Below are positions 9,304-56,710 of a stretch of DNA of 64,000 nucleotides, piece by piece. Made by a program: the position numbers and the translations under genes. The DNA is from a bacterium (GTDB lineage: Bacteria; Patescibacteriota; Microgenomatia; Woykebacterales; RBG-16-39-9b). The first letter of the stretch is position 1. Each line of letters begins with the position of its first letter. The notes beneath the pieces were generated by a model. The model did not search any database and was not told where the DNA came from. It saw only the letters and a program-made list of their open reading frames with translations. The DNA is taken from contig JAUYID010000009.1 of NCBI GenBank assembly GCA_030704665.1, positions 163-64,162 on the forward strand, in the 5' to 3' direction.

Positions 9304-10182
9304 GTGATGGACATTCACCAAAGTAGTCTTTGGGCCAAGTACATGGAGGCGCTGGGTTGGCAAACAGTCGATCTCAAACCGGGCTATGCTTACATCAGAA
9401 AACTTCCTCTCCTCGGCTCGATAGTAAAAATTCCCAAGGCCAGTTCAGAAATAGATTTGGTTCTAGTTAACGAGGTTTCGGAAAAGAACAAAGCAATTTT
9501 TACCAAAATCGAACCGGTTGGTGAAGTTGGTGATCAAAAGCTTTCGAACTCTTTAGTTAAAGCTGGTTTTGAAGCTGACAACTGGAGCCTGCAACCAACC
9601 AAAACTTTGGTTGTGGATTTAAAGGCCCCCGAAGAAGAAATCCTTACTCGTATGGAAAAGGATACACGCTACAGTATCCGTAGTGCTGAAAAGAAAGGGG
9701 TAAGGGTAGAGAAAGCAGACGACTTTGAAACCTTCTGGTCACTACACTCCCAAACGGCGAAGCGAGGTAAATTCTGGACGATTCGAGCCGACGTCGAAAA
9801 GCTCTGGAAAGTTTTTTCTGAGGCAAAACAAGGGCTGATATTAGTTGCTAGTTTTAATGAGCAACCACTCGCAACCTCAATGGTTCTTTTTCAAAATAAA
9901 AAAGCTTACTACTATCATGCCGGTTCCAGTACGCAGCGTAGAGACCTTTTTGCCCCTTATTTGGTAGTTTGGGAAAGTATCAAAGAGGCTAAGAAAAAAG
10001 GTTGTACGAGCTTGGACTTGATGGGAATAGTTGACCCAAGAATAAAAGCAACCCGGTCTTGGGCTGGTTTTTCTCATTTCAAAAAAGGCTTTGGAGGCGA
10101 AGAAAAAACTTATCTAGGCTCTTACGCCAAATTCTACAACCCAATCTTCAAACTCATTTTTAAGTTAAACAAATTTTTCTAA
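9304..10182 (+). CDS. FemAB-family peptidoglycan interpeptide-bridge peptidyltransferase
   Basis: Overall FemX/FemAB-like layout, including a YYYHAGSS-type motif. Confidence 0.55.
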   Translation: MMDIHQSSLWAKYMEALGWQTVDLKPGYAYIRKLPLLGSIVKIPKASSEIDLVLVNEVSEKNKAIFTKIEPVGEVGDQKLSNSLVKAGFEADNWSLQPTKTLVVDLKAPEEEILTRMEKDTRYSIRSAEKKGVRVEKADDFETFWSLHSQTAKRGKFWTIRADVEKLWKVFSEAKQGLILVASFNEQPLATSMVLFQNKKAYYYHAGSSTQRRDLFAPYLVVWESIKEAKKKGCTSLDLMGIVDPRIKATRSWAGFSHFKKGFGGEEKTYLGSYAKFYNPIFKLIFKLNKFF

Positions 10183-10185
10183 AAG

Positions 10186-10225
10186 AAATGAAAAACGCCA
10201 GGGCATTTGTGGTGCTCTGGCGTTT
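10186..10225. terminator. Bidirectional intrinsic terminator
   Basis: Stem AACGCCAG-(15 nt loop)-CTGGCGTT flanked by T-runs on both strands. It lies between the FemAB gene (+) and the island small-ORF unit (-). Confidence 0.6.
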
Positions 10226-10255
10226 TCGGTAGTGTCGGTTCGACGCGGGTGTGCT

Positions 10256-10522
10256 TTAGGCGACCGCTGCGGCCTCTACACAGTGATTCGCACAGCGCGA
10301 GGTCTGCTCGTCGATGGGGCCGCCGTGGTTGCCGGGGTCGACGATGACGCACTGGCGTACCTTCTTCGAGAGCACAGGGCTGGTCCGGGACCTGGGTGGT
10401 GTCTGGCGCCGGTCGCGGTGCGACTGGCAGATCACCTTGTCGGGGTTCTCGGGATCCTGGAACATCTGACCCTTGTGGTCATACTTGTCCTTGATCCAGC
10501 AGTCATTCAGGTTGGCCTCCAC
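10256..10522 (-). CDS. Small (88 aa) cysteine-containing protein with strongly GC3-biased codon usage; unknown function
   Basis: GTG start 6 nt downstream of a perfect AGGAGG Shine-Dalgarno. Third codon positions are almost all G/C, unlike the surrounding genes. Five Cys (..DCW.., ..ICQSH.., ..RQCVIV.., ..RCANHC..). Confidence 0.55.
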   Translation of the reverse strand: MEANLNDCWIKDKYDHKGQMFQDPENPDKVICQSHRDRRQTPPRSRTSPVLSKKVRQCVIVDPGNHGGPIDEQTSRCANHCVEAAAVA

Positions 10523-10952
10523 GTTGATCCTCCTGTGAATTTCCCTTTGGGTAAAGGGAATCCTACCGATTTTTGGCCTTGAAAGCCAAAGATCTGGTTT
10601 CTCATCAAGGTGTTAGCCCTTTTTTGAGACGAAAAACCAGATCTCTGACTGCCAAAATATTTACTTTTTCCTAACAATCACAAATTTGGCCCTTAAGAAC
10701 CGGGGGAGTTTTGTATTCACCACCTTTCCTTTAAGTTCTGCCCCGTAATTGCTTACGGGCCAAGTTTGTGATTACTAGTGCGAGAGGGGAGGAACGGTGT
10801 AGACGCTTGCGTCCCATTCGTCCTCCCCTGCGCGCCGGCTCGCTATTCAGTTGTCGCTTCTGAGTGTCACGTCCAGGTCATGGTCGTAACTGCTCCTTTC
10901 GTGAACTGAGACTTCGTGACCTTGCGGTCGCGTCGTCGCCGGTCGGTTGGGT
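10523..10952 (-). ncRNA. About 430-nt GC-rich, multi-hairpin leader/spacer RNA between two small ORFs (possible riboswitch or cis-regulatory RNA)
   Basis: Nested perfect stems: AATCACAAATTTGGCCC/GGGCCAAGTTTGTGATT enclosing CCCGTAAttgcTTACGGG; GGGGAGGA...TCCTCCCC; CCCTTTgggtAAAGGG; CTTTGGCcttgaaaGCCAAAG; AGATCTGGTTT...AAACCAGATCT. Confidence 0.4.
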
Positions 10953-11123
10953 CTAGTCGTTGGTGTCGTACTCCCTGTCGCCGCTGCCTTCAGTGGCGAA
11001 GAGGACACCACGGAGAACCCGGGAGGAAGGCACGGACCTGACGTTTTCCGTCGGCCCCATGAACTTCCACTGTGTGCGAACGATGCCATCCGCACCACGC
11101 TCCGCTTTCATCTGCTGCATCAT
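10953..11123 (-). CDS. Candidate small ORF (56 aa, below the ORF-track cutoff) with GC3-rich codons
   Basis: ATGATG start with AGGAGG 13 nt upstream (long spacer). Codon usage is coding-like and GC3-rich. No homolog recognised. Confidence 0.3.
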   Translation of the reverse strand: MMQQMKAERGADGIVRTQWKFMGPTENVRSVPSSRVLRGVLFATEGSGDREYDTND

Positions 11124-11321
11124 TTGGCGGGTTTAACCTCCTGAACTAAGATCCTAACCGCGTTTGTCTCAAATTGCTCTGGGGCAAACGCCATAAAATC
11201 TAGTCCTATAGTTCTATATTTTCAAAGAACAAAAAGATCTCGCTCTTCTTCCCTGTATTCAACTTTTCTTGAATTATGTGTCTGTTTTCGCAAAGCTCAA
11301 CATCCACGTAATTACTTTGTA

Positions 11322-11350
11322 ATTATAGCACAAGACAGACCTATAGTCAA
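11322..11350 (-). promoter_or_regulatory. Near-perfect sigma70 promoter (TTGACT-N17-TATAAT) reading leftward into the GC-rich island
   Basis: Minus-strand reads cTTGACT-ataggtctgtcttgtgc-TATAAT, read from the sequence. It lies just downstream of the helicase-nuclease stop. Confidence 0.6.
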
Positions 11351-11375
11351 GTTGTGGGCTTTTGTTTTGTTTTGG

Positions 11376-14324
11376 TTACTTAGCAAGTGAAAAAGGACAA
11401 ATGGCGTTGTACGGACAATAAAAACAAGCTGGCTTTTGTCCAAAGTATTTGGGGTTAGCAGGAAAGTCATCTTTTTGTAAATTGGCACGAATTTCTTTAG
11501 CAACTTCAACTACCCTTTTCTCTGTTTGCTCGATGTCTTCCTCTTTCGGTGAGTAACCACCGACTAGTCCAGTTTCCAAATCGTAGATACCGACAAAATC
11601 TGGGACTTTTTTGTAATTTTTATAGTAGCCCAAAGTGTAAACCCTCAGCTGAATGCTTTCCTTGGCGTCTTTTTCCAGTTGCTCCTCACTACGATTTTCA
11701 GTGGATTTAAAATCGATGATTTTTACCTTGCCGTCTTTCTCGTCAACACGGTCGAAGCGGCCAGAGACCAAAACTTGTGTCTCCCCGTTTGTTAAGTTAA
11801 AACGGAACTCTTTCTCGACGAAACTTGGGGTGTCTTTTGTAGTCTTCTCTCGGGAGTAAAAACTAGTCAGTACGCGGCGGGCTTGCAAAAGACGTTTTTC
11901 CTCGTGCTCGGCAGTTAGAAAGCCCTCCGTCACCCAAGTGTTTTCTAAAACCTGCAAGCAAGAATCTAACTCAAGAAGTTTCCCGTTCATCTTCGAGCGG
12001 TAAAACTCCGCCACGGCGGCGTGGAGCGCAAAACCATAAACAATGGCGTGGTGGCGGAGTATCGGTAGACGCAGCACATGAGCGTAGCGGTATTTGTAGG
12101 CGCAAGTTTCATAGTCATCAATTGACCCCTGCGAAAGACGAATGATTTTGTTCTCCGCTGAGGGTAGTTTGTAGTTTTTCGGTTCGGAAAAAGCAAACTG
12201 CTCAATCTTTTCTTTTGGGTTTAGTTTCACAGCAACCGAGCCAGCACCAGGCAAGTCTAAGGCTTCAAGAATAAAGGGTGAAATTTTCTTGGCCCTGACT
12301 CCTCCAGTATCTTTCGACCAGGTGTAGTAGAGAAATCTTTTGGCGCGAGTGCTGCCAACATAAAAGAGCCGTCTTTCTTCTTGCAGGTGAAAATCTCCAG
12401 AAGGTAAAAGTTCCTTAATTAGCTCTTCTGGAATTGGAATGGCTTCTTTTCTTTCCCGGCTGGGAAAGCGGTCGGCAACCAAACCAACCATAAAAACCGC
12501 CTCAAACTCCAAACCTTTAGCCGAGTGCACCGTCATGACGTTGACTGCATCTTGATCGGGATCAAAGTCAGCAGTAGCCGGATCATCCCCGGCCAGGCGC
12601 ATTGCTTCGAGATAGTCCACGAAAACCCGGACTGATTCGTTTTGGGCCAGATCGATAAACTCAGCGATTTTGTCAAAAAACCTCGCAATATTCTGAATCT
12701 TTATTTCAGCTTCAACCCCACCTTCTCTTTCGAGACGCGTCAGGTAAGCAGTTTTCTGTAAATAAATATAGAGGACGCGGCCGACGTTTTCTTTTTGGGA
12801 AAGCTCGGCTGCCTCAGAGAGGTCTTTAATAAGTTTTTTGATGATTTCCCTTCCCTCAGCACTTATCTCAAGACCTTCCTCAGAATTGGCAACTACTATC
12901 TCGAAGACACTGCGCAGCGTTTTGTTTTTTCTCCTGGCCGTGTCCATACAGGCAATCGCATCCGGAACTGGAAGTTGATAAAGCTCACTGCTGACCAAAT
13001 TGTAAAGGTTAATACTGTCATCAAAGTTGGATATTGCTGTTAAAAACGAGATTAGCAGACGAATTTCTGGCTGGGTGTAAAGTCCAGAAGAACCAACGAA
13101 TTTGTGAGGGATTGCTTTTAAATTTAGGGCTCTCAAGAAAGAGTCTGCCTGGGAGTTAGCACGGACTAATATCGCAATGTCTTTGTAGTGAATTTTTTCC
13201 TTTTTAACCAGTTTTTGAATTTCTTTCACTACCTCTTCTGTTTCTTCAGTCAGAGTCGTACCACAAATTTCCTTCGGGCCTTCTCCTTTCTTCTCGGCAA
13301 CCGTTAAAAGTTTCTTGTCAATTTTGTTTTGCACTTCAAGCCGATCGGGATCGTTGTTTTTTATCAGCCGGTAGGAGGTGTCAAGAATTTCTTGGCTAGA
13401 ACGGTAGTTCTTGGTTAAAACCACTTGCTCTGCTTTTGCAAAATCCTCTTTAAACTTCATGATATTGGAAATTGCCGCTCCCCGAAATTTGTAAATACTC
13501 TGATCGTCATCACCAACAACACAAAGATTTTTGTGGGAGTTTGCTAGAAGCTTAACTAACTCGTTTTGTGAGTAGTTGGTGTCCTGATACTCATCAACAA
13601 GAATATATTTAAACTTTTCTTGATACTTTTGGAGAATTCTCGGCTTGGCTCTAAAAAGGTTGAGAGTCAGGCTGACTTGGTCACCGAAATCAAGCTTTCC
13701 CGCTTCCTTTTTAAACTGTTCGTACTTTTGATAAACTCGGACAAGCTCTTCCTGTCTTTTTATTTCTTGCAACCAGTCATCTTTTTCAAACTCCTCTGGT
13801 TGTTTCTTTTTCTTCAATTTCTCTACATAGACAGCAAAATCCTCAGCGCCGATGTCCTCATCTTTGCAACGACTGACGAATGTGAGAATTGCCTCAATAA
13901 ATTTCGTCGGATTCGAGAGTGGTCGGTAATAATCAAGATCAAAAGCGAAAAGATTCTGCTGGAAAAAAAGAACCTGTTGGGCTCGACTCAACACTTGGAA
14001 GTCGGGGGGTAAACCAAGATCCAAAGCATTTTCTCGCAAAACCCGGTCGCCGAAGGCGTGAAAAGTGCTGATCCAAGTATCCACATATCCATAAGGAACC
14101 AAGAGGTCGACTCTTTCTTCCATTTCGGAAGCAGCTTTTTCAGTAAAGGTAAGGGCGATAATTTCTGAAGGTTTAGCTAGTTTTTTTTCGATCAGGTAGG
14201 CGATGCGGCGGGTAATAACTGTGGTCTTGCCAGTACCAGCTCCGGCGATGATAAGCAGTGGGCCTTCTGTTGTTTCAACTGCTTGCTTCTGTTCTTTGTT
14301 TAATCCTTCGAGAATTGAGCTCAT
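11376..14324 (-). CDS. UvrD-like SF1 helicase fused to a C-terminal RecB/Cas4-like PD-(D/E)XK nuclease with a Cys cluster (AddA/AddB-like single polypeptide)
   Basis: N-terminal Walker A AGAGTGKTTVITRRIAYLI and DEYQDTN motifs. C-terminal CFYCPYNAICPF is typical of Fe-S-containing RecB-family nucleases. Confidence 0.75.
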   Translation of the reverse strand: MSSILEGLNKEQKQAVETTEGPLLIIAGAGTGKTTVITRRIAYLIEKKLAKPSEIIALTFTEKAASEMEERVDLLVPYGYVDTWISTFHAFGDRVLRENALDLGLPPDFQVLSRAQQVLFFQQNLFAFDLDYYRPLSNPTKFIEAILTFVSRCKDEDIGAEDFAVYVEKLKKKKQPEEFEKDDWLQEIKRQEELVRVYQKYEQFKKEAGKLDFGDQVSLTLNLFRAKPRILQKYQEKFKYILVDEYQDTNYSQNELVKLLANSHKNLCVVGDDDQSIYKFRGAAISNIMKFKEDFAKAEQVVLTKNYRSSQEILDTSYRLIKNNDPDRLEVQNKIDKKLLTVAEKKGEGPKEICGTTLTEETEEVVKEIQKLVKKEKIHYKDIAILVRANSQADSFLRALNLKAIPHKFVGSSGLYTQPEIRLLISFLTAISNFDDSINLYNLVSSELYQLPVPDAIACMDTARRKNKTLRSVFEIVVANSEEGLEISAEGREIIKKLIKDLSEAAELSQKENVGRVLYIYLQKTAYLTRLEREGGVEAEIKIQNIARFFDKIAEFIDLAQNESVRVFVDYLEAMRLAGDDPATADFDPDQDAVNVMTVHSAKGLEFEAVFMVGLVADRFPSRERKEAIPIPEELIKELLPSGDFHLQEERRLFYVGSTRAKRFLYYTWSKDTGGVRAKKISPFILEALDLPGAGSVAVKLNPKEKIEQFAFSEPKNYKLPSAENKIIRLSQGSIDDYETCAYKYRYAHVLRLPILRHHAIVYGFALHAAVAEFYRSKMNGKLLELDSCLQVLENTWVTEGFLTAEHEEKRLLQARRVLTSFYSREKTTKDTPSFVEKEFRFNLTNGETQVLVSGRFDRVDEKDGKVKIIDFKSTENRSEEQLEKDAKESIQLRVYTLGYYKNYKKVPDFVGIYDLETGLVGGYSPKEEDIEQTEKRVVEVAKEIRANLQKDDFPANPKYFGQKPACFYCPYNAICPFSLAK

Positions 14325-26679: not shown

Positions 26680-26754
26680 GGCGAGGTAGCCAAGTGGTAA
26701 GGCAAAGGTCTGCAAAACCTTTATACGCCGGTTCGAATCCGGTCCTCGCCTCCA
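26680..26754 (+). tRNA. tRNA-Cys (GCA), CCA encoded
   Basis: Cloverleaf read by eye: acceptor GGCGAGG/CCTCGCC, anticodon stem AAGGT/ACCTT with loop CTGCAAA (anticodon GCA), T-arm GCCGGTTCGAATCCGGT, 3-prime TCCA. Upstream TTGTGC-N17-TATAAT promoter. Confidence 0.8.
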
Positions 26755-27746: not shown

Positions 27747-28847
27747 TCAACTCTCCCACAACCTCAGCTGGTGACCTTCTGGGTAGATGGTTTCCAACTG
27801 TTTCTCAATTGTTTCTCCTTCCCCCAACTTTCCAATGATCTGGCGAGGTAGGTCCTCACCATAAATCTGTCTCGGCAAGGAAAGCAGCCCGGCTGCTCTG
27901 GCGACATCGCCTTTGGTCAAAGCAGTGTGAAGCGCTCCTCGCAGCCGACGTCTTGTCCGCTTCGGCAATCTCAACTCACCGTCGCGAATACTCACCCCCA
28001 AAACCTGGAGATTGGTATGGCCACTGATCTCCATAAGCTTGGTTTTGCGCTCGTTCAACTCGAAGGGAGTCTTCTCGTTGACGATTCGGCAGAGGGTGCG
28101 AACTTCAAGCTCAGTAATGGGACCATCTGCCGAGATCGCAATATTGTCCGCATAGCGGGTGTAGATCGCTCCCATCTTGTCAGCAAAGATCGCCAGACGC
28201 CGGTCCAGGTCACGGCAAACGAAATTGAAGAGAACCGGCGAGCTTGGTGCTCCCTGGGGCAAACGTGGCTCTAGTCCCAAACCTGGCACTAGAGTGGTGC
28301 AAAGGCGAGTGATCGCCAAAGCAAGCCACTTACCGATCTTGACTGCTCCAACCTCCTGCTCCAAGAGCTCTTCGAGCAACCACTTTCTGGTTACACTGCT
28401 GAAAGCGTCTTTGAGATCCAAGCTGAGCAGGTAGCGTGAGTGTCGGTGAGCCTCCACTGCGGTCAGCATTTTTCGATCCCGTACAAAACCGTGACACGCC
28501 CTGTGCACCGGCAGACCGGAGAGCAGGTTGCGTAGCATTCGTCGCTGCAGCCAGCGCAGCCGGGGGTCGGGAATCATCAGGATCCGAAAGTCCCCTGACC
28601 TCTTCCTGATCAGTCGCATGTCGTAGGACTCATCAATTCCACTTTCAACAATTGCCTGCAGTTGAGCCGGCCAAACGTGAAAGAGCAGGGCGAGGTAGCG
28701 GTAGGGGTTAAAGGACCGCCGAATCCGAAAAGGATCCAGCTGTGTCCATTCCCGCCAATTTCCAACCCCGTAAGAATCGTAAACGTCATCCTCAAGTTCG
28801 CCGAAACGAAACTCTTCTCCCGCCTCTTCCCAGGCAATATCAAGCAT
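27747..28847 (-). CDS. Retron-type reverse transcriptase (366 aa), GC-rich
   Basis: RT domains: RILMIPDP (domain 1), HRACHGFVRDRK (domain 2), LDLKDAFSSV (domain 3), LPQGAPSSPVLFN (domain 4, QGxxxSP, not the DGR variant), YTRYADNIAIS (domain 5; YADN rather than YADD), NERKTKLM (domain 7), and a VTG-like LQVLGVSI. AAGGAG SD 6 nt upstream of the ATG. Confidence 0.7.
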   Translation of the reverse strand: MLDIAWEEAGEEFRFGELEDDVYDSYGVGNWREWTQLDPFRIRRSFNPYRYLALLFHVWPAQLQAIVESGIDESYDMRLIRKRSGDFRILMIPDPRLRWLQRRMLRNLLSGLPVHRACHGFVRDRKMLTAVEAHRHSRYLLSLDLKDAFSSVTRKWLLEELLEQEVGAVKIGKWLALAITRLCTTLVPGLGLEPRLPQGAPSSPVLFNFVCRDLDRRLAIFADKMGAIYTRYADNIAISADGPITELEVRTLCRIVNEKTPFELNERKTKLMEISGHTNLQVLGVSIRDGELRLPKRTRRRLRGALHTALTKGDVARAAGLLSLPRQIYGEDLPRQIIGKLGEGETIEKQLETIYPEGHQLRLWES

Positions 28848-33486: not shown

Positions 33487-33573
33487 TGTTTTGAACCTAA
33501 GTGAATTAATGGTATCATAGGTATGAGAAGAGAGGCAAATTAATCTCCAGAGAAAGGTGGTGAATAAAAATTT

Positions 33574-34152
33574 ATGTTAAAGAAAAATCCCAACCAACGT
33601 GTTGGTGTTTTCGTTGATGTCCAAAATATGTACTACTCGGCCAAAAACCTTTATGAAGGTCAGCGGGTCAATTTCAGCCAGATTTTGGAAAAGGCCACCG
33701 CTGGTCGACAAATGATTCGTGCTTTTGCTTACGTCATTAAAGCTTCAATGCCTGAGGAGCAGACCTTTTTTGATGCTCTCGAAAAGGCCGGTTTTGAAGT
33801 CAAAAGTAAAGATGTTCAAATTTTCCCGGGTGGGGTAAAAAAAGGTGATTGGGACGTCGGAATTGCGATCGATATGATTCGCCTCGCCCCAAGACTAGAT
33901 GTTCTAGTTTTGGTCTCTGGTGATGGGGACTACATTAACCTAGTCGAATATCTCCAAAACCAAGGCTACCGAGTCGAGTCGATGAGTTTTGGCAAATCTA
34001 CTTCTGGGAAACTGATCGAGCAAATCGATGAGTTCACGGATATGGATGAAAATTATCAACAGTATCTTTTCCCGATGAAAAGCTCAAAAGTCAGACGCAG
34101 TTTCCGACCCAAGTCTGATCCTGGCTCAACTCCGATCTTGCCCGAACTTTAG
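33574..34152 (+). CDS. NYN/LabA-like domain protein (predicted RNase/limkain-type)
   Basis: VGVFVDVQN...LVLVSGDGDY motif. Confidence 0.65.
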   Translation: MLKKNPNQRVGVFVDVQNMYYSAKNLYEGQRVNFSQILEKATAGRQMIRAFAYVIKASMPEEQTFFDALEKAGFEVKSKDVQIFPGGVKKGDWDVGIAIDMIRLAPRLDVLVLVSGDGDYINLVEYLQNQGYRVESMSFGKSTSGKLIEQIDEFTDMDENYQQYLFPMKSSKVRRSFRPKSDPGSTPILPEL

Positions 34153-39430: not shown

Positions 39431-39931
39431 TCAGGACACCGACGCTGGTTCACCAGTCTCGATAGCGCCAGGTTCTACCAGACCGTCTCCCTCGAGGCGA
39501 TGAACCACCAAGCCAAAGACGATAACCCGATCCAGCTCCATAGCAGCCAGACGCGCCGCCTCCGCGACTCTAATAGTCGGCTCGAGACCTAAACCCAGAA
39601 GTAACCTATCCGCAACTTCAACGAGCAGATCGACACTCCCAGTCCCAGACCAGGGGTAACCCTTGAAGATCGCCACTGCTTCCTTGAGCTCACTACGAAC
39701 AATGGCAGGGTGGTTCTGGAAGAACATCATCCGGAAGGTCAGCTCAACCAGAAACTGGTTGATCACTGTGGCCCTGCGCAGCATCAGACTCAGCTTGTCG
39801 AACTGCTGCTCGTCGAGCTGGCCAGCGAGATGGGCGTTGATCAGGGTTGGCCCCACCCACTCTGGAAGGAGCTTACCGCTGATCACTCGGTAAACCAGGT
39901 CTTGCATCTGCCGAAAGTTGTCTGTAATCAC
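39431..39931 (-). CDS. Island gene 4: 166-aa all-alpha protein, unknown function (GTG start)
   Basis: GTG start preceded by AAGGAG 8 nt upstream. GC-rich codon usage. No recognisable motif. Confidence 0.5.
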   Translation of the reverse strand: MITDNFRQMQDLVYRVISGKLLPEWVGPTLINAHLAGQLDEQQFDKLSLMLRRATVINQFLVELTFRMMFFQNHPAIVRSELKEAVAIFKGYPWSGTGSVDLLVEVADRLLLGLGLEPTIRVAEAARLAAMELDRVIVFGLVVHRLEGDGLVEPGAIETGEPASVS

Positions 39932-39996
39932 AGTACGTTCTCCTTCTAGCTTTCCTCAAGTCTCCAGCTTCCACCAGGCTTGTCGTCTGAGTGCGA

Positions 39997-40389
39997 CTAA
40001 TAGTCGAGTGGGTTGCACTCGTAGCAGTCGCGCTCGTCGCCAGTGTGGATTTTCCCCGCAGCGATGTGAAATGCGTCTCGGTCATCGTCCTCGACCGGAT
40101 ACATCTCATCGAACACATCGTCGTCGCTGACGCCGTGCTCGATCGACTGAAGCTCAGCGATAATCGCTCTCCTGACGGACGGTGGTGTATCGGAGGCCGT
40201 CAGCCTGGCAGTGTTGTAGTCCCCTTCTTCAGGAACCCTACCACCAGTAATCTGATCCAGCCGCTCCCAGTAAGTTGCCAAAACGTTTCCCCTCTCACTC
40301 TCATGCGAGACTCTGGCTTTCCGCCAGGCTACTCGGTGTAGGTGACGATTGCAGTCAGGAAGATTGCTCGCCCGCCGCTTTGGAGCCAC
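39997..40389 (-). CDS. Island gene 3: acidic small protein (95-130 aa depending on start; a TTG at 40281 avoids overlap), unknown function
   Basis: C-terminal acidic stretch DDDVFDEMYPVEDDDRD and CYECNPLDY. Start is ambiguous: GTG at 40389 overlaps gene 2 by 61 nt, while TTG at 40281 follows the conserved intergenic motif. Confidence 0.4.
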   Translation of the reverse strand: MAPKRRASNLPDCNRHLHRVAWRKARVSHESERGNVLATYWERLDQITGGRVPEEGDYNTARLTASDTPPSVRRAIIAELQSIEHGVSDDDVFDEMYPVEDDDRDAFHIAAGKIHTGDERDCYECNPLDY

Positions 40390-40547
40390 TGAACAGAGGC
40401 CCCCGGATGCTCAGCAACGAAGTTGTTCACTTCGTCCTGCAGCGTCTTCAAACGCTCTTCGTACTGACCCGCGTAACCATAGGTCGGACGACTAAACACT
40501 TGGAACATTTCCACCTTTCCCTTCTGGCTGTCGGTCTGAGTGACCAT
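40329..40547 (-). CDS. Island gene 2: 72-aa soluble protein with a DUF4177-like pattern (weak resemblance)
   Basis: ATG with GGAGGA 4 nt upstream. Pattern: beta-strand (VEMFQVF), GY.G, helix, GG, terminal strand (AIFLTAIVTY). Confidence 0.5.
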   Translation of the reverse strand: MVTQTDSQKGKVEMFQVFSRPTYGYAGQYEERLKTLQDEVNNFVAEHPGASVQWLQSGGRAIFLTAIVTYTE

Positions 40548-40581
40548 TCTTTCCTCCGCGTGTCTCTGGCTTCACGCCAGG

Positions 40582-40812
40582 CTAATCGGCAAAGATTCGG
40601 TCCGCTCGCACCAGGAATAGCACAAGGGCTGCGAAGCCCAGTGCATAGGTACCAGCGGCGAGCGTGACGATCCGATCCTTGTTGCCTATCGTGTCTGAAG
40701 GCCAGCCCAGAAGGCCAAAGACGGCGTTCACCACAAGGGCCAGTCCGGCTACGACGACTATGAGCATGACTGTAGACACGTACTTCTGCAAGAAGTTGCT
40801 GGTGATTACCAT
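40582..40812 (-). CDS. Island gene 1: 76-aa two-TM membrane protein
   Basis: ATG start. Two hydrophobic helices (VMLIVVVAGLALVVNAVFGLL and LAAGTYALGFAALVLFLV). First gene after the consensus promoter. Confidence 0.5.
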   Translation of the reverse strand: MVITSNFLQKYVSTVMLIVVVAGLALVVNAVFGLLGWPSDTIGNKDRIVTLAAGTYALGFAALVLFLVRADRIFAD

Positions 40813-41239
40813 TGCCTGGCCTCTCGTCCTCTGACCTTGCGATCAAGCTACTGCTTGCCGTTGCCGCGTCGCCTTCGGTCCTGAGTTACAAGTCGCTCGA
40901 GGCGTGCTTGCACCTTGGGCGTGGCGTTCCTGCGTATCTGCGCATCCGAACGCGCCGCCGGTTTCTTGGACCGAGAAAACACAAGTCTCATAGGTTTGCC
41001 GAAATCCTTTTGATTTCAAAGAGCTGGGTGGATACAAGAGCGCAAAGCTTGTGCTCCTGCTTAAGCAAACCAACCTTGCGGCTGACTTTCTTAAGAAAAT
41101 CAAAAAAGGCACCTGGTAACTGGTATCGATCTGTCCAAGACTTCAGGGCGGTTTTCGCAATGACAGTTCTACTTAAACATTCAATTCCAGTTACTAGATG
41201 CCTTATCTAAGTAACTACTATTCAGTTTTTAATAAAAGG

Positions 41240-49345: not shown

Positions 49346-50439
49346 TGTTGGCCAGTCTTGAAATAACCAACTTCCGTAATCTCAAAAACTCTAAACTGGA
49401 GTTTGCCAAAACCTTAAACATTTTTTATGGGGACAACGCTCAGGGAAAAACCAATCTCCTCGAGGCGATTTTCCTAATTAGCACGGGTAAGTCCTTCAAA
49501 TCCGAAGTTGATCGGGAACTGATCGCCTGGGGACAAACCTCAGCCCGAGTCGTTGCTCAAGCACCACCTCTAGAGATAGAACTAACGATAAATGAGACAA
49601 ACAAAAGACTGCTCGTCAACCGCCAGAGCCGGCGTCTGATTGAGCTAGTGGGCGAGTTTTTAGTGGTTTTGTTTGCTCCCGAGGATTTAAGTCTGGTCTA
49701 CGGCGCCCCAAGTCAGAGAAGAGCTTGGATCAACAGCCTGATCTCTCGTGTCGATCGCAAGTACCTCTTTAATTTAGGTAAGTTTAACCAGGTAATCAAA
49801 AACCGCAATCGGGTCCTTCTCTCGCTAAACCAAGGAGGCAGCCCGGATCTAGGAGTTTGGGATGAACAGTTTATCAAACTCTCAGTCGATCTTTGGGTCA
49901 GCCGGCAAGAATATCTCGCTAAGGTGAACAGCTTTTTAAAACAAATTGCCCCGAAGCTCGGAGTCAGCAAAATTACCGTTGAGTACCATCCGCAACTTGC
50001 AGTCAAAGACGCAAAATCGTTAAAGGCAGTTTTGACCAAAGAGCTCGAAAAACGAAGAAGAGAGGAGGTAGCCCGCGCGCAGACTGTTTTGGGTCCCCAC
50101 CGCGACGACTTTAAACTCATTTTTGAACAAATTGAGAGCGAGAAGGTTTTGACCAAGGATGTTTCTGTCTTTGGTTCCCGCGGTGAGCAGAGAACCGGAG
50201 TGCTCAGCCTGAAACTAGCAGAAATTGAGCTGATTGAAATGATCAAAGGTAAAAGACCGACGTTACTTTTGGATGACGTTTTAAGTGAATTTGACAAAAA
50301 ACACCGAGAAATGATTCAAGGGTTGCTTTATCGCCAGCAAAGTTTTATTACCACTACCGCGACCGACCTGCTCGATAAAAAACTTTTGAGCAAGGCAAAA
50401 CTCTTTCAGCTTAAAACTGGGCAAGTTGAGGCTGGCTAA
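49345..50439 (+). CDS. recF: DNA replication and repair protein RecF
   Basis: Walker A GDNAQGKTNLLEAI, signature motif and Walker B LLLDDV. Confidence 0.9.
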   Translation: MLASLEITNFRNLKNSKLEFAKTLNIFYGDNAQGKTNLLEAIFLISTGKSFKSEVDRELIAWGQTSARVVAQAPPLEIELTINETNKRLLVNRQSRRLIELVGEFLVVLFAPEDLSLVYGAPSQRRAWINSLISRVDRKYLFNLGKFNQVIKNRNRVLLSLNQGGSPDLGVWDEQFIKLSVDLWVSRQEYLAKVNSFLKQIAPKLGVSKITVEYHPQLAVKDAKSLKAVLTKELEKRRREEVARAQTVLGPHRDDFKLIFEQIESEKVLTKDVSVFGSRGEQRTGVLSLKLAEIELIEMIKGKRPTLLLDDVLSEFDKKHREMIQGLLYRQQSFITTTATDLLDKKLLSKAKLFQLKTGQVEAG

Positions 50440-52508
50440 CGCTCCAGGGGGTGGTAGGGCACCTTTTGTTTGGTGTTGAGGCTGACCTGGGTGGTCGTCT
50501 CTGATTTGAGTTCGACCGGAGCTGGTTTGGCCTCTTCCGGTTTTGGTTCTCGGGCCGGTGGCGCCTCAACTTCCTTTGGAGCCAAGGGTGTTTCTTGCCT
50601 CTCCTCCGCTTTGACTGGGAGCGCTGGTCCCGTTTCTCTAGCCAGTTTGGGGGCGGGGGGTATCTCCCCGCGTTCCAGTTTTTCCAGCAGGGCTGGGTCC
50701 TCTCGTCCCAGACGACGCAGTTTTTCTAGCTCCTTTGGGTTGGAGGTGATCAGAACGTGCTCGTGTTCGGCAGCCTGGACGCGGATAGCGACATGGTTTG
50801 CGCCAGCAAAGAAAAGACCCTCCCCGATATCAGCGCTGAGAAGCAGATTCTTCTCCCCCTCGGAAAGGTAGAAAACGGCCGAGACTTCGTTTATCGAAGC
50901 CGGTGACTGTTTGAGAAGAATTTGGATTGAGGAGTTGGTTACGATCGCCTTACCGTAATCAGTGTTGAGGAAATCTTCCACGTCTTGGGTGATGGTTGTC
51001 AAACCAAGGAAATACTTACGGGCTCTTTTAGCAATCGAGTACATGAAAGAAGCAGAATCAGGATGTTTCATCAGGTACCAAGCTTCATCAACGACGAGAA
51101 TTCTGCGCTTGCGGTCCTTTTTGATCCGAGTCCAAATGTAGTCAAGAATGATAAACATGGCAATCGGCCGCAGTTCGTCCTCCAGATCCCGTATCGAGAA
51201 GACCGTGAAAGTGTTTTTAATATCAACTGTGCTTTGTTGATCAAAAATTCCAGAAAGAGAACCTTTGATGAATTTTTCGAGCCTTTCCGCCATGGATTTG
51301 GCTTCGGGTTCGGCCATGTTTTGCAGAACCGAGTAAAGGTCTTCCATGACCGGAGATTCACTTGTTTGGGTGGTTGGATCTGGAGTGATTCCTTTCTGTT
51401 TGTAAGTAAGAATCAAGGCCCGGTCAAGGACAGCGTCTTCGGTTGAAGTGAGTTTCCCCAGAATGACCCGAAAAAGGGAATGCAGGGAAAGAATCTTAAG
51501 CCCTAGTTCGTTTTCGCCTTCCTCGTAAACTCCGGAGAGGTCGAAGGGGTTAATTTTAGCCTCAGTTTCTGTAGCAAACTTGATGTACTCCCCACCAATG
51601 GCTTTACAGAGCTCGCCATACTCTTCTTCTGGGTCGATAACGATGACTTCAGTGCCAAACATTAAACTGCGCAGAGTTTCCAGCTTGACCATGTAGCTTT
51701 TCCCCGCCCCAGACTTGGCAAAAACGACGCTATTAGCGTTTTCCAAAGTGAAACGATCAAAAATAATTAAAGAGCCGTTGTGCTCATTGATACCGTACAT
51801 GATTCCTTCGTTGGCAGTTAGCTCTGAAGAAGTAAAGGGAAAGGTTGTTGCCAAGCTCGTGGTGTCCATGTTGCGGGTAACAAAAAGCTTGTCACTAAAA
51901 GTGGGTAAGGTAGCCCGAAAGCCATCTTCTTGTTGAAGAGTAGCGTGTTTGGTGACCACCAGCAAAGAGCCTAGGGTCGACTCGACCTGCTTGGTGATGG
52001 AGTTGAGCTCCTCCAGAGATTCAGCTGGGATGGTGATATAAAAAGACATTTGAAAAAAGCGTTCAATACCCGCCGCTAGTTGCTCCTGCAGAGATTGGGC
52101 GTCTTCCAAGGCAACACGAACAGCCGGATCAACCACCCGACCAGCTTCCAGGTCACTTTGAACAGTTGCCTCCATCTCGGCAATTTTGTGGCGCAGGTCG
52201 TCAAGGATCCCCTTTGATTCTACGGGGTAGCAGTAAAAACAAAGGTCCAGGGTGTGGTCAAAGTTAATAATTGGGGCAAGCCAATTAGCCCCGACAAAAC
52301 GAGGGTAGCCGGAAACAAAGAGAGTTCGAAAGTAAAGATCCCCTAGTTTAAGGTTGTCAAAATCAACTTCAAGCGCCGGTGGAGCGATAATATCTTTAAC
52401 ATCGACCATCCCCGCTCCCAAAGTCTTAGAAATTTTGTTCCTCGTTTTCGCAAGCTCTATTTCCTGAGGAGAAGGAGTTTTTTTCTTCGGGAGGAGAGAA
52501 AATTTCAT
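50436..52508 (-). CDS. virB4: VirB4/TrbE/CagE-type type IV secretion ATPase (ATPase portion)
   Basis: Walker A FAKSGAGKS, Walker B ILVVDEAW, overall VirB4 C-terminal organisation. Confidence 0.75.
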   Translation of the reverse strand: MKFSLLPKKKTPSPQEIELAKTRNKISKTLGAGMVDVKDIIAPPALEVDFDNLKLGDLYFRTLFVSGYPRFVGANWLAPIINFDHTLDLCFYCYPVESKGILDDLRHKIAEMEATVQSDLEAGRVVDPAVRVALEDAQSLQEQLAAGIERFFQMSFYITIPAESLEELNSITKQVESTLGSLLVVTKHATLQQEDGFRATLPTFSDKLFVTRNMDTTSLATTFPFTSSELTANEGIMYGINEHNGSLIIFDRFTLENANSVVFAKSGAGKSYMVKLETLRSLMFGTEVIVIDPEEEYGELCKAIGGEYIKFATETEAKINPFDLSGVYEEGENELGLKILSLHSLFRVILGKLTSTEDAVLDRALILTYKQKGITPDPTTQTSESPVMEDLYSVLQNMAEPEAKSMAERLEKFIKGSLSGIFDQQSTVDIKNTFTVFSIRDLEDELRPIAMFIILDYIWTRIKKDRKRRILVVDEAWYLMKHPDSASFMYSIAKRARKYFLGLTTITQDVEDFLNTDYGKAIVTNSSIQILLKQSPASINEVSAVFYLSEGEKNLLLSADIGEGLFFAGANHVAIRVQAAEHEHVLITSNPKELEKLRRLGREDPALLEKLERGEIPPAPKLARETGPALPVKAEERQETPLAPKEVEAPPAREPKPEEAKPAPVELKSETTTQVSLNTKQKVPYHPLER

Positions 52509-53236
52509 TGCTGCTCCCCCCCTTTTGCTTGGTTGATGACCGGTTCGAGAGCGGGTTGAACAATGGGGGTGGTGTATTCTTGGGTTGAAAGAGCTGCTTT
52601 TTGTTCTCGAGCCACTTCTGGGTTGTAAAGATCGTAGAAAAGCTCGACCAGCTCTTCCGTCGCGAGCTGTTTGCCTTTGATCCCAATACGGTTGAGTTGT
52701 TTGACGAGATGAGCGATTTTTGGGGCTAAGTTTATCTTAGCTTTTTCGAGAGTACTCCACTTGTTCCCCACCACAGTTTTTTTTGGGAAAAGAGCTGGTG
52801 GTTTGATTTGCGATAAATCTCCTGAGAAATAGGGGACTACTACATAAAAACGCTTGTCGAGAACTTGATTGCGAGAAACCAGATCGCGGACAAACCGAGA
52901 GTAAAGGTCAATCTGTCCCGCCAAACGCTCATTTTTGGTTTCTGCTTTGGCTCCATCCAAGAGTTTGAGGTAGTTGGAAATATCCATCCTTTTGGACCGC
53001 ACAATGATCTGAATTGGAAAGGTCAGTGAGTTCAAAAGAGCTGCATAAGCAAAGATCATTGCGTCTTGCTCGGATTCGCTTAAAAGGTCAAAATTGACCG
53101 CGTTGGTCTGAAGGATAGCCGCTGCTCCTCCGTTTTTCAAAATGATCAGATCATCGCGAATGTCTTCGACATCGAGGTGTTCTTGAGTTGTCGGAAGTCT
53201 TTTTGCTTTGGACATTTTAAATTGCCTTGATTTCAA
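52505..53236 (-). CDS. VirB4 N-terminal-domain-like protein (possible split VirB4 or separate T4SS component)
   Basis: ATGA start/stop overlap with the downstream ATPase ORF. Combined length about 930 aa, matching full-length VirB4. Confidence 0.4.
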   Translation of the reverse strand: MKSRQFKMSKAKRLPTTQEHLDVEDIRDDLIILKNGGAAAILQTNAVNFDLLSESEQDAMIFAYAALLNSLTFPIQIIVRSKRMDISNYLKLLDGAKAETKNERLAGQIDLYSRFVRDLVSRNQVLDKRFYVVVPYFSGDLSQIKPPALFPKKTVVGNKWSTLEKAKINLAPKIAHLVKQLNRIGIKGKQLATEELVELFYDLYNPEVAREQKAALSTQEYTTPIVQPALEPVINQAKGGEQQ

Positions 53237-55334
53237 TTGGCTTCATGATTTCCCCGCCTAATTGAACTTGGGTAATGTCGAATTCCAAACTATCTTTTTC
53301 AAGCTCAATATTGTAAGTCCCGTTGGGTAGAGGAGTGGAGATCACAAATTGACCAATTTTGTTGGATTTTAGAGCCCGAACCGGCTCCCCCTTCTCATCT
53401 TTGATAATCATGACTGCTCCAGAAACGAGTAAACCCCCCTTGTCGCGAACAATCCCATTGACGACATTGGGGAAGGAAACTTTGGGCGGAATCATTTTTC
53501 CAAAAGCCGGCTGGGCAGCTACAACATTCCTCCCCCGCGCTTTCTTGGCCCTTTCCTTCTCGGCGAGAGCCTTTACTTCCTCTGCAATTTTGGCTTTCTG
53601 AACTACCAATTCTTTTTGTCTTTCGGTCGCCGCTTCCCCTTCGTTTCTGGCCTTTAGCTCACTTTCCCGAATTTTTTTGTCGATCTGCTCGTTGAGAAGG
53701 TGAACTTCGGCCGCAATTCTCTGTTTTTCACCTTGATATTGAAGCCCCTCGTATTGAACCATGATATCTGCTTGGTGCTCCAAATTTTTTAAAGTATCAG
53801 ACAACTTGTCCCGCTCCCCTTCGGAGAGCTGCTCTCGGCCCAGTTTGGCAAGTTTGCCTTCTGCCACAATGGTATCTTTTTGAATTTCTTGGCGATCGGC
53901 GCGGTGGGCCAAAACTTTCGGATCGACCGGAGTTTTAACGGGTTCGGCAATTTGGGCCGCCTGTTTTTCTGAAATTATTACCGGGTTGTTGATGACAAGA
54001 GGTGGCTGGGTGGGGCCCATTTTACTCATATCGAGGTTCTTGGATGTTTCTTCCAGGTTGCCCGGGAGTTTGATTACTTCTTGACCAGTCTTTTCTTCAG
54101 AAGCCTCGAGTTTAACTTCTTTTGGCTCGGTTTGTTTTTCTTCAACCACTTTAGGAGGGCTTGGAGGTACTAGTTGCGGGTTTTCCCCGCTTGGTTTTTC
54201 GACAGCCTCAGTTTCTAGGGCCGTTTTGGTAGGTTGTGGGCTTTCGGGGGCTTTAACGGCGGGTTCTTTGACCGCCTCAACACTTGTACTAGCTAGCGCG
54301 CTTACTGGGTTCTGTTCAGCTACTTCGGGAAGTAATTCTTTTTGAGCCGGGATATTTATTGGGGTATAAGAAGCCTTGGTCAGCTCAGAGGGTTTTTTTG
54401 AAAGCTCAATCAGTTTCTCGGCCAAAGGCGGTAGTTTGGCTAGGGACTCAAGTGGCGAGCCCTTGGTTTCGGTCGAGGGCCCGAGCGGACGCACTTCAGA
54501 GACCACAACCTCCTTGGGCTCAAATTTAATTTTTTGACTTGGAGGGGTCGGCTCTGCCTTGAGAGTTGGCGGCAGGCTAATTTGTTTGTTAGGTTGGGGC
54601 AACTCGCGCCCTTCTTCTTTGGGGGGTGCTGCTGGGAGAGGGTTTGGTGTCTTGGTTTCGGGTTGAGCGGAAGCGCCCAGCCCCGCAGTTGGGTTTTTGG
54701 TCTCCTCGAGCCGTGGTTCAGGCGTTTTTGTTGCCGGCAAGCTACCAACAACTGGCTTGGGAGCTGGCTGGTTGACGGCGACGGTCTTGGCGGAAACAGG
54801 AAGAGCCTGAGAAGCTGCTTGAGCCACGGCCTGTTTTTGGTTTCGTTGACTCAAAAGACTGCGGGCAGCCTGGGTAGTTTTGGTTAGCTCGGAAAGCAGT
54901 TTGCTGCGGTCAGCCAAAGGGGAAATCTGACTTTTGAAGCTTGGGGCCGGGACGCCCAAGTAGATAGGAGCTGTTTGCGGCTCGAGTAGGGGCCTGGCAG
55001 CGGCCTGAACTTGGGAACCAATTCCAGCCTGCAAGCTCTCCGGAAACTCAAAGACACGCTCACCGCGAACGGGCAAAATTGCTTGGCCATTAAGAGCAAC
55101 AGGACGAAGGTAACGAGGTTGGCTATTGTTGACACCTCTGACATAGACTAGCTTCCGACCCATCTTGACGGTGGCGACGGGGTTGAAGCCAACTTCGGAG
55201 GCAATTTTTGGTTTATCCTCTTTAGTCTCACTGATAGTCCGCGCCTTTTCGGTCGGTGAAAAACGATGCAGGGTGGGGATGTGAACAAAGGTACGCAGCT
55301 TTGCCGCAGCTTTGGTCAGAACCTCATTGCTCAT
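53217..55334 (-). CDS. Pro/Thr/Lys-rich T4SS-associated protein with coiled coil and a C-terminal carboxypeptidase-regulatory-like beta domain
   Basis: Long low-complexity P/T/K-rich spacer, coiled-coil KERAKKARG region, and C-terminal VISTPLPNGTYNIELEKD beta-sandwich-like end. Confidence 0.4.
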   Translation of the reverse strand: MSNEVLTKAAAKLRTFVHIPTLHRFSPTEKARTISETKEDKPKIASEVGFNPVATVKMGRKLVYVRGVNNSQPRYLRPVALNGQAILPVRGERVFEFPESLQAGIGSQVQAAARPLLEPQTAPIYLGVPAPSFKSQISPLADRSKLLSELTKTTQAARSLLSQRNQKQAVAQAASQALPVSAKTVAVNQPAPKPVVGSLPATKTPEPRLEETKNPTAGLGASAQPETKTPNPLPAAPPKEEGRELPQPNKQISLPPTLKAEPTPPSQKIKFEPKEVVVSEVRPLGPSTETKGSPLESLAKLPPLAEKLIELSKKPSELTKASYTPINIPAQKELLPEVAEQNPVSALASTSVEAVKEPAVKAPESPQPTKTALETEAVEKPSGENPQLVPPSPPKVVEEKQTEPKEVKLEASEEKTGQEVIKLPGNLEETSKNLDMSKMGPTQPPLVINNPVIISEKQAAQIAEPVKTPVDPKVLAHRADRQEIQKDTIVAEGKLAKLGREQLSEGERDKLSDTLKNLEHQADIMVQYEGLQYQGEKQRIAAEVHLLNEQIDKKIRESELKARNEGEAATERQKELVVQKAKIAEEVKALAEKERAKKARGRNVVAAQPAFGKMIPPKVSFPNVVNGIVRDKGGLLVSGAVMIIKDEKGEPVRALKSNKIGQFVISTPLPNGTYNIELEKDSLEFDITQVQLGGEIMKPIEIKAI

Positions 55335-56418: not shown

Positions 56419-56710
56419 TTGAGTAGCCCTTTTACAATTAAAGAGTTAGAAAATTGTTCACCTCAAAGTGCGCGAGAGCCTTGGGGGAAAGATGGAAGCT
56501 GAGCTTAGAAAATGGCCTCTAGTAGCGAAAAAAGAGCTAAACTAGTTGTAATAGGCAGCCTAGAGCTTGCTTTTATCTTCCCCCCAATGCGCTGTTGCTT
56601 TTATGCACTCGCTTGGGGATCAACTTCACTTACACGTCTGGCTTTCAGGCTAGTACGTTTTGATCCACAACAACGAGTTGCATAGCAACAAGAGCAGCAC
56701 TGGGAGGTGC

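Follow-up and report, generated by a model that had tools for sequence, protein, structure and literature searches.

Candidate clade-specific transcription unit in Woykebacterales with a conserved three-way-junction RNA core and exchangeable small open reading frames

Bacteria of the Patescibacteria, or candidate phyla radiation (CPR), have tiny genomes with few recognisable regulators, and there is little knowledge of RNA regulation in this group. Here we describe an intergenic locus in a stretch of 64,000 nucleotides (the window) from a bacterium of the Woykebacterales (Patescibacteriota; assembly GCA_030704665.1, contig JAUYID010000009.1), in which a first-pass annotation had noticed a G+C-rich unit of two small open reading frames (ORFs) and an intervening hairpin-dense RNA. 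The study region (10183-11375) is the gap between two convergent genes, namely a FemAB-family gene on the plus strand (9304-10182), which converges on the studied unit, and a minus-strand gene encoding a UvrD-type helicase fused to a PD-(D/E)XK nuclease with a total length of 982 amino acids (11376-14324). With a probability of roughly two in three, we read this unit as a clade-specific transcription unit built around a conserved structured RNA, with the two small ORFs as accessory, lineage-variable cargo. The junction RNA itself is best described as an RNA gene or leader that is conserved, specific to the clade, and of a previously undescribed kind.

The unit lies on the minus strand and begins with a sigma-70-type promoter, TTGACT-N17-(TG)TATAAT (11322-11350), which is located 26 nt past the helicase stop codon and agrees with the consensus at 11 of 12 positions, bearing out the promoter that had been proposed. 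The remaining promoter-like sites in the region are weak (9 of 12 matches) and no antisense promoter was identified among them. Downstream of the predicted transcription start, the 5' leader (11142-11315) is host-like in composition and contains a hairpin at 11160-11191. It is followed by ORF56, the slot-1 ORF of 56 amino acids (10953-11123), with a GGAGG at 11137-11141 that lies 13 nt upstream of the ATG. Then come a G+C-rich hairpin, GGGGAGGA..UCCUCCCC (10783-10833), directly upstream of the junction, the three-way-junction RNA core of about 110 nt (10658-10781), and the hairpin T1 followed by UUUGGCUUUC (10579-10655; -36.6 kcal/mol), which is terminator-like with a weak U-tract in the window. 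A small hairpin, UUUGGC-loop-GCCAAA (10568-10594), overlaps the T1 U-tract. The slot-2 gene, ORF88 (88 amino acids, 10256-10522), starts with a GTG placed 6 nt past a GGAGG (10529-10533). The unit is closed by T2, an intrinsic terminator (10192-10226) with 14-nt arms that are 93% complementary and flanked by an A-run and a T-run. As had been suggested, T2 is bidirectional, presenting a U-run on the minus and a T-run on the plus strand, and it is common to the unit and the convergent FemAB-like gene. Taken together, these signals support a single minus-strand transcription unit that would be driven by a strong promoter.

The inter-ORF stretch of 430 nt is genuinely structured, as its density of hairpins had implied: it folds at -173.7 kcal/mol, corresponding to z = -8.7 on the minus strand and z = -6.4 on the plus strand when compared to shuffled sequences. 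Inverted repeats mark the outer stem of the junction (10671-10697/10752-10778; 27 nt, 85% complementary), T1 (10579-10606/10628-10655), a further hairpin (10785-10793/10821-10829), and T2 (10192-10205/10213-10226). The proposed island of high G+C is present in the form of two blocks, 10178-10538 with a peak of 69% and 10777-11146 with 65%, versus a window mean of 46%, which are split by a segment of host-like composition (10540-10780). Codon periodicity is absent from the G+C-rich part of the inter-ORF stretch (10782-10952; p = 0.30). The 4,227 models of Rfam 15 were searched at gathering and at permissive thresholds. At gathering thresholds nothing in the region was matched, the only match in the window being a transfer RNA (tRNA; 26680-26751), and at permissive thresholds the best match between 10000 and 11500 was rli61 with E = 0.29 and 22.6 bits versus a threshold of 50, located on the terminator. 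The suggested riboswitch or ribozyme therefore found no counterpart among these models, and no housekeeping RNA was matched over the region either. This includes the hammerhead-like UGAUGAG..GAAAC, which is the 3' arm of T1, reads GACGAAGCC in the related locus L002 and is replaced by other sequences in relatives. A full-text search of the literature, with incomplete coverage, returned no description of this RNA. No copies of the hairpins or of the AT-rich block were found elsewhere in the window, ruling out a miniature inverted-repeat transposable element (MITE) or a repetitive extragenic palindromic (REP) element.

Related loci made it possible to follow the unit through evolution. L002 was found via P0003, an ORF88 homologue encoded there, nine more loci (L004-L012), from metagenome-assembled genomes of Candidatus Woykebacteria and other Patescibacteria, by scanning a genome collection with an alignment of the helicase C-terminus, and four further metagenome loci with a DNA pattern derived from the conserved RNA; the FemAB protein alone as query of the genome collection found no relatives. 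The order helicase, unit, and convergent FemAB recurs in L002, with an orthologous helicase of 73% identity, and in L004-L011. A model of the RNA, described below, matches 14 of 15 loci, every time on the helicase strand, and it has no match in L012, the most distant locus. In 13 related loci, the RNA is preceded by a promoter of the form TTGAC-N15-19-TAnnnT. When the window is compared with L002, four-fold degenerate sites show 28% identity and the synonymous difference (pS) of the helicase is 0.88, i.e., these sites are saturated. The leader (28%), the ORF56 region (37%), and ORF88 at the DNA level (49%) have low identities to L002, and the promoter (82%), T1 with the small hairpin after it (76%), T2 (74%), and the junction (73%) have high ones. 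Identities of 73-82% next to saturated neutral sites imply that promoter, junction, T1, and T2 are under selection, and an RNA that is strongly promoted and fixed at one site of the clade despite neutral saturation is likely to be important to its host. A Logan assembly, L001, is 100% identical to the window across 12.3 kb; it possibly derives from the same reads and is therefore a weak argument against a chimeric assembly, the syntenic relatives being the stronger one. The records of L006, L007, L008, L009, L011, and L012 are labelled "uncultured Gammaproteobacteria" (four), "Nanoarchaeia archaeon," or "Saccharimonadales," and their helicases are 54-70% identical to Woykebacteria-like helicases; these six labels are probably taxonomic mislabels in the public records.

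The nested three-way-junction element proved to be genuine, and no other part of the locus is as well conserved. Its outer stem P1, first described with 16 bp, extends to 22 bp (10757-10778/10671-10692). It encloses P2, a hairpin of 4 bp with a GCAA loop of the GNRA type (10745-10756), and P3, a short G-C stem (10742-10744/about 10702-10705) closing a loop of about 35 nt that carries AAGGUGGUGAA at 10716-10726, all on the minus strand. In an alignment of the junction from 11 loci (A6), 92.5% of the cells of the proposed pairs are paired versus 26-58% with slid partners, and none of 500 shuffles was as good. Eight pairs of P1 have compensatory changes, and many pairs are G-U, which would become A-C mismatches on the opposite strand, so that the pairing is strand-specific. 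RNAalifold gives the same junction fold de novo from A6, with a covarying fourth pair in P3 (G-C versus A-U), and the P2 loop belongs to the GNRA class throughout A6 (GCAA, GAAA, GUAA, or GUGA). At the 11 training loci, the covariance model derived from A6 gives 92-117 bits for the promoter strand versus 24-44 bits for the reverse strand, and it recovers non-training loci, i.e., L011 with 54 bits, L007 with 39 bits, and L006 with 21 bits; the reverse strand of L007 and L011 scores 17-31 bits. L011 and L007 are without P2; they keep P1 by GGCUG/CAGCC and GGCUU/AAGCC replacing GGCCC/GGGCC, and they retain the loop GGAGGUGAAU. The hairpin directly upstream of the junction reads GGGGAGGA.. in the window versus GGGGAGGGC.. 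in L002 and is formed in both; visual inspection revealed comparable GGGAGG/CCUCCC hairpins in L004, L005, L008, L009, L015, and L016, and they are absent from L010 and L013.

These data bear directly on an explanation in which the G+C-rich unit is recently inserted foreign or mobile DNA and its hairpins are element ends or recombination sites acting at the DNA level. The unit with promoter and terminator is syntenic and kept in 14 related genomes with saturated synonymous sites, its conserved RNA core is host-like in composition rather than rich in G+C, and the G-U pairs together with the strand asymmetry of the model scores indicate RNA and not duplex or cruciform DNA. Moreover, no integrase, transposase, or flanking repeats were found around the unit, and BLAST searches of phages and plasmids with the DNA and with ORF88 as well as pattern scans of viral contigs gave no match. 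What speaks for inserted DNA is the G+C content at third codon positions (GC3), 0.77 in ORF56 and 0.84 in ORF88 versus 0.36-0.50 in most host genes, the mobile character of further window genes with high GC3, among them a reverse transcriptase and a TraG-like ATPase as well as unknown ORFs, and the variation of the cargo between relatives, which resembles an insertion hot spot. However, GC3 is high in both ORF88 orthologues (0.84 in ORF88, 0.67 in the P0003 gene), which fits maintenance or repeated exchange and not one recent insertion. We regard insertion of the whole unit as improbable, and the earlier idea of a mobile-element fragment fails for the unit, although its ORF cargo may still move horizontally.

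The roles of the RNA as core and of the ORFs as cargo follow from the comparison of the loci, which modifies the original picture of two ORFs separated by an RNA: both ORFs are present in the window, but across the loci the RNA is constant and the ORFs are variable and dispensable. L013 consists of promoter, about 45 nt, junction, and terminator, followed by FemAB and without any ORF, and this retention of promoter, RNA, and terminator makes the RNA core independent of the ORFs. In L004, L005, and L016, the RNA with its terminator is accompanied by a small ORF on the upstream side and by none downstream, and in L010 the promoter directly precedes the junction without an upstream ORF and an ORF of more than 433 amino acids follows. 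Slot 1, the interval between promoter and RNA, is occupied by orphans and by no fewer than three conserved families of small proteins that are unrelated to each other: the basic family A in L002, L005, and L014, a second family in L008 and L009, a third one in L016 and L007, and orphans in the window (ORF56), L004, and L011. Slot 2, after T1, holds ORF88 or P0003 or other ORFs, which are mostly Cys-rich and match no family, and which are sometimes trailed by further unknown genes, the island of L009 reaching 3.7 kb. Nearly all cargo ORFs exceed host GC3, with values of 0.56-0.88, and no recombinase ORF lies between helicase and FemAB in any locus examined. An integron was rejected as an explanation, there being no recombinase ORF in any locus and no repeated attC-like hairpins. 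The variable slots provide a natural system for studying gain, expression, and loss of orphan small proteins.

ORF88 was the more informative of the two ORFs. It has G+C contents of 0.62, 0.43, and 0.84 at the three codon positions and a three-base periodicity with p = 7e-8, and in a HMMER scan of 1.84 billion representative proteins it matched P0003, a protein of 103 amino acids, with 46% identity and E = 3e-17. P0003 is the single homologue among about 15 billion proteins and is syntenic, being encoded in L002 between helicase and FemAB. The non-synonymous difference (pN) between both genes is 0.39 and pS is 0.63, which indicates moderate purifying selection. These observations agree with the earlier proposal that the Cys-rich ORF is a real gene, and we infer from its sequence that ORF88 is a genuine, fast-evolving small protein. 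The residues common to ORF88 and P0003 (C8, H16, C32, H35, C58, H66, C77, and H80) form two modules of the type C-x7-H-x-G-x10-15-C-x2-H, which are predicted to be probably zinc-binding and possibly nucleic-acid-binding. The slot-2 proteins of L008 and L015 contain the same module. Background ORFs with 45,000 residues in total have only two copies of it, a rarity that is only indicative since the pattern was defined after the sequences were seen. No match of ORF88 or ORF56 was found in Pfam, PHROGs, NCBIfam, PADLOC, or sequences of the Protein Data Bank (PDB), and in a word-indexed search of 5.8 billion protein clusters each of them matched only itself. A profile from the two family members found no additional ones, and P0004 was rejected as a homologue, being a low-complexity Cys/His repeat protein. 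The AlphaFold model of ORF88 is of low confidence, with a pLDDT of 56 and a tentative beta-beta-alpha arrangement at residues 20-40, and Foldseek found nothing in the PDB at E < 7 with this model. An identity as HNH or beta-beta-alpha-metal protein or as zinc ribbon was not adopted, as Pfam, NCBIfam, PHROGs, and the PDB gave no match. As a two-member protein family with a repeated Cys/His module, ORF88 is a lead for further work.

ORF56 is an orphan and a predicted gene. Its G+C contents at the three codon positions are 0.58, 0.46, and 0.77, with a periodicity of p = 0.002. It shares a homologous Shine-Dalgarno (SD) sequence and ATG and the length of 56 amino acids with the slot-1 ORF of L002, yet the two have no similarity in any frame. 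A search with four sequences, prompted by a seeming resemblance on visual inspection, rejected ORF56 as a frameshifted member of family A, as the best match in any frame had E of about 0.1.

A degraded gene of a larger G+C-rich protein, in which the ORFs are chance open frames, would explain the lack of an ORF56 homologue, and G+C-rich DNA is indeed poor in stop codons, with antisense ORFs of 116 and 83 amino acids being present. Against it stand the periodicity, the syntenic homologue, and the pN below pS of ORF88, as well as a tblastx comparison of the window with L002, in which no frame is conserved across 10523-11380 and the short matches fall into the RNA blocks, in several frames and on both strands. 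Furthermore, no tested frame matches any family, so that we give this explanation, which had been named beforehand as one that needed checking, next to no weight.

A toxin-antitoxin or small-peptide module of type I or III, with the structured RNA as antitoxin, was another early suggestion, and it is understandable in view of small ORFs that share one strong promoter with a closely associated, seemingly abundant structured RNA and of the rapid turnover of small proteins between genomes. For type I, the hydrophilic nature of ORF56 and ORF88, which are not membrane peptides, the missing PADLOC match, and the lack of an identified antisense promoter led to its rejection, and for a ToxIN-like type III system the RNA is without tandem or direct repeats longer than 12 nt and ORF88 without a match to a toxin family. 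Neither PADLOC nor Pfam nor PHROGs provided any support, the RNA persists without any ORF in L013, and the proteins within each slot are non-homologous. This makes such a module very improbable.

The GC3 bias of both ORFs stands as it had been described, with one restriction: it is not unique, since the reverse transcriptase, the TraG-like gene, and several unknown ORFs of the window reach 0.60-0.65, and ORF88 is still the extreme. Expression-linked codon optimisation was rejected because GroEL has a GC3 of only 0.49 and because the other high-GC3 genes are of the kinds just named. The retention of high GC3 in the ORF88 family despite saturated host synonymous sites points either to selection on composition or to repeated cassette exchange from a G+C-rich gene pool, and the pS of 0.63 for ORF88 versus 0.88 for the helicase fits both.

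At the position of T1, a hairpin of differing sequence with an A-run on the 5' side and a U-run on the 3' side was present in all 10 loci extracted. The length of the U-tract tracks the presence or absence of a downstream ORF: it comprises 6-8 U in L004, L005, and L013, which are without downstream ORF, 5 in L016, where the ORF was lost, and 2-5 where a downstream ORF exists, the window reading UUU-GGC-UUU; L004, L005, and L013 thus have a full U-tract versus only UUU in the window. Among 10 loci examined, the small UUUGGC/GCCAAA hairpin is found in the window, L002, L014, L008, L009, L010, and L016 and not in L004, L005, and L013, i.e., in those loci that have, or recently had, a downstream ORF. 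In the proposed mechanism, most transcripts would end at T1 and yield a small RNA, and read-through of T1, the U-tract of which is weakened in cargo-bearing genomes, would allow expression of the slot-2 protein.

As the main alternative, the same arrangement can be read as a cis-regulatory leader, in which a riboswitch-like aptamer or attenuator senses a ligand or factor and controls the read-through of T1 into slot 2 and the ORF-less loci have decayed. The succession of an aptamer-like junction, a terminator hairpin, and an ORF with an SD sequence is the classical layout of a riboswitch, a conserved structured element with covariation is at hand (14 loci, P1 covariation, and invariant loops), a downstream ORF is present in 10 of 14 loci, and an orphan SD sequence without ORF in L016 suggests ORF loss. 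The downstream genes, however, stem from uncharacterised and mutually unrelated families, and riboswitches normally govern coherent sets of genes; moreover, L013, L004, and L005 fully keep the RNA with a strong terminator and without a downstream gene, and the gene context suggests no ligand. Pairing of the 3' arm of P1 with the 5' arm of T1 resembles an antiterminator and is strong in the window (-19.4 kcal/mol; z = -4.8, the significance of which is overstated because the shuffle control breaks the A-run and the U-run) as well as in L004, L005, and L016. This complementarity is missing in L002, L014, L008, L009, and L010, and it is strongest in ORF-less loci, where it would be purposeless. 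On balance, we consider a regulatory leader of this kind unlikely, and we continue with an RNA core that carries accessory cargo.

A clue to the role of such an RNA core comes from the loop of P3, which reads AAGGAGGUGAA in 10 of the 11 A6 loci, AAGGUGGUGAA in the window, and GGGAGGUGAUCA in L006. The sequence AAGGAGGUGA is the exact complement of the 3' tail of bacterial 16S ribosomal RNA (rRNA; ...GAUCACCUCCUU). Among the 45 long host ORFs of the window, GGAG or GAGG is found at -20 to -4 in only five, and GroEL and GroES bear SD sites of the AAGGAGGUAA and UAAGGAGGUAA types. These figures and sites suggest that the organism has a canonical anti-SD sequence and makes sparing use of strong SD sequences. 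Strong SD sequences are present for ORF56, ORF88, and the cargo ORFs of the other loci. No micro-ORF with a conserved start codon or frame was seen behind the SD-like loop when A6 was read by eye. Most likely, the exposed loop would serve as a perfect SD mimic without start codon, pairing with the anti-SD tail of 16S rRNA in 30S subunits; it could be a landing or standby site for ribosomes that translate the embedded ORFs, or the RNA could bind 30S subunits in trans. Binding of the ribosome by the junction loop through anti-SD pairing is our leading guess for its function, although a tentative one that we would not bet on. An invariant SD-mimic loop in genomes that mostly lack strong SD sequences nevertheless offers a testable hypothesis on the interplay of RNA and ribosome. 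A more elaborate version, in which the AAGGAGGUGA loop docks the anti-SD tail of the 30S subunit, the locus forms a fixed "expression dock" where small, Cys-rich genes with G/C-rich third codon positions are swapped without a local recombinase, and the RNA acts in trans on the ribosome pool in ORF-less genomes, appears to us rather doubtful. If it were true, ultra-small CPR bacteria would possess a novel RNA class that targets the anti-SD and a cassette-exchange locus of a kind not seen before. Besides the loop itself, AAGGAGGTGA occurs elsewhere in the window only at 33554-33574 (plus strand), where it is the ordinary SD sequence of an ORF of 192 amino acids (33574-34152) and accounts for a weak match of the covariance model and a weak blastn match of 15 nt.

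A second recurrent box was seen close to the junction. In L004, L005, L013, L015, and L016, GGUUAGG(A)AAAGUAACACC or GUAACACC is found just after P1, and in the window, L002, and L014 the box lies instead in the apical loop of T1 (10640-10670 and 10615-10630 in the window, minus strand). The CACC of this box, which loosely resembles the AUCACC of the 16S tail, could pair with the GGUG of the SD-like loop in a pseudoknot; there is no covariation by which this could be judged since both partners are invariant.

Several points weigh against an RNA core with a ribosome-binding loop and have to be set against the evidence above. That the loop is complementary to the 16S tail is deduced from the bacterial sequence in general and from the GroEL and GroES sites, and the window loop AAGGUGGUGAA departs from the SD core at one position, making a pure SD mimic less plausible in this genome. 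Alternatively, the invariant loop may engage in the internal pseudoknot of GGUG with the GUAACACC box, or it could bind a protein. The frequency of downstream ORFs among the loci is compatible with a cis-regulatory leader as well. P2 and most of P3 are invariant, so that their only support comes from the RNAalifold prediction, one covarying pair, and the GNRA loops. With sequences that are few (11 to 14) and related to each other, the covariation statistics cannot be taken as formal probabilities. Finally, transcription start, termination at T1, and translation of ORF56 and ORF88 are all predictions from sequence.

Comparative genomics of G+C-rich or long intergenic regions has led to orphan structured RNA motifs such as raiA, ROOL, GOLLD, and OLE. 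The RNA described here resembles this class in its intergenic position, its outstanding composition and structure, a multi-stem fold backed by covariation with invariant loop nucleotides, a narrow phylogenetic range, and a function that is not evident from the neighbouring genes. Unlike these motifs, it matches none of the 4,227 Rfam models, it is found at one fixed syntenic site per genome, it displays a full SD complement in a loop, and it shares its transcript with exchangeable small ORFs. With riboswitch and attenuator leaders it has in common the order of junction, terminator hairpin, SD sequence, and ORF, the conserved junction with its loops and, in some loci, a possible alternative pairing of P1 3' and T1 5'; it differs from these leaders in downstream genes that are mutually unrelated and absent in four loci, and in an alternative pairing that lacks conservation between loci.

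Dual-function small RNAs, which double as messengers for a small protein, include SgrS/SgrT, RNAIII/hld, and SR1/SR1P. As in these cases, the unit would give a short, strongly promoted transcript composed of a conserved structured RNA domain and a small ORF; here, however, the ORF does not stay with the RNA but gives way to unrelated ones in other genomes, and what is exposed resembles an SD rather than an anti-SD sequence. Ribosome standby sites and SD-like translational enhancers are a further point of reference, an example being the standby site of tisB. The P3 loop is similar to them as a predicted single-stranded stretch with strong complementarity to 16S rRNA that has no adjacent start codon and lies upstream of a structured region and an ORF. 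To our knowledge, standby sites do not occur within a conserved three-way junction or without a downstream ORF, in contrast to the loop described here, which sits in such a junction and is present even where the downstream ORF is missing. A fixed, promoter-bearing platform with variable unknown small genes of foreign composition is also reminiscent of integron cassette arrays and insertion hot spots; unlike integrons, the locus has no integrase and no attC-type repeats after the cassettes, and it offers only one or two slots, which flank an RNA.

Some minor features of the locus and the window are added here. A mini-ORF, AUG-ACC-UGG-ACG-UGA (MTWT*; 10867-10881, minus strand), is preceded by a strong SD sequence, AAGGAG, at about 10893-10898. 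It reads MTWT* in the window and L002 (7687), MTWP* in L015 (54), and MTWPLSH* in L016 (2406), and most loci lack it. Its Thr codon shows synonymous changes (ACC/ACU/ACG), in contrast to a constant Trp codon. The mini-ORF could encode a leader peptide for translational attenuation, or it may merely be the loop of a small covarying hairpin (CCA-UGACC-UGG/CAA-UGAC-UUG/CCAC-AUGAC-GUGG). Directly 5' of the -35 element TTGAC, a box CCCATAGTAC is found in L005, L008, L009, L010, and L011, with the version GCCCACAAC in the window (11351-11362), and this box could be a regulator-binding site or an UP-like element. Elsewhere in the window, in the segments 39431-40846, 56660-60085, 53217-55334, and 50436-52508, several ORFs without Pfam match (among them products of 166, 130, 705, and 1,141 amino acids) have raised GC3 values of 0.47-0.65, and a TraG/VirB4-like P-loop ATPase adjoins them, which suggests that the high-GC3 ORFs of the window and the cargo ORFs of the locus draw on a common pool of higher-G+C, possibly mobile, DNA. 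No template/variable direct repeats of at least 40 nt, as in diversity-generating retroelements, were found between 26.5 and 31.5 kb around the reverse transcriptase. This enzyme (366 amino acids; Pfam RVT_1, E = 1e-22; GC3 0.60) is encoded at 27747-28847 on the minus strand, about 1 kb from the tRNA at 26680-26751.

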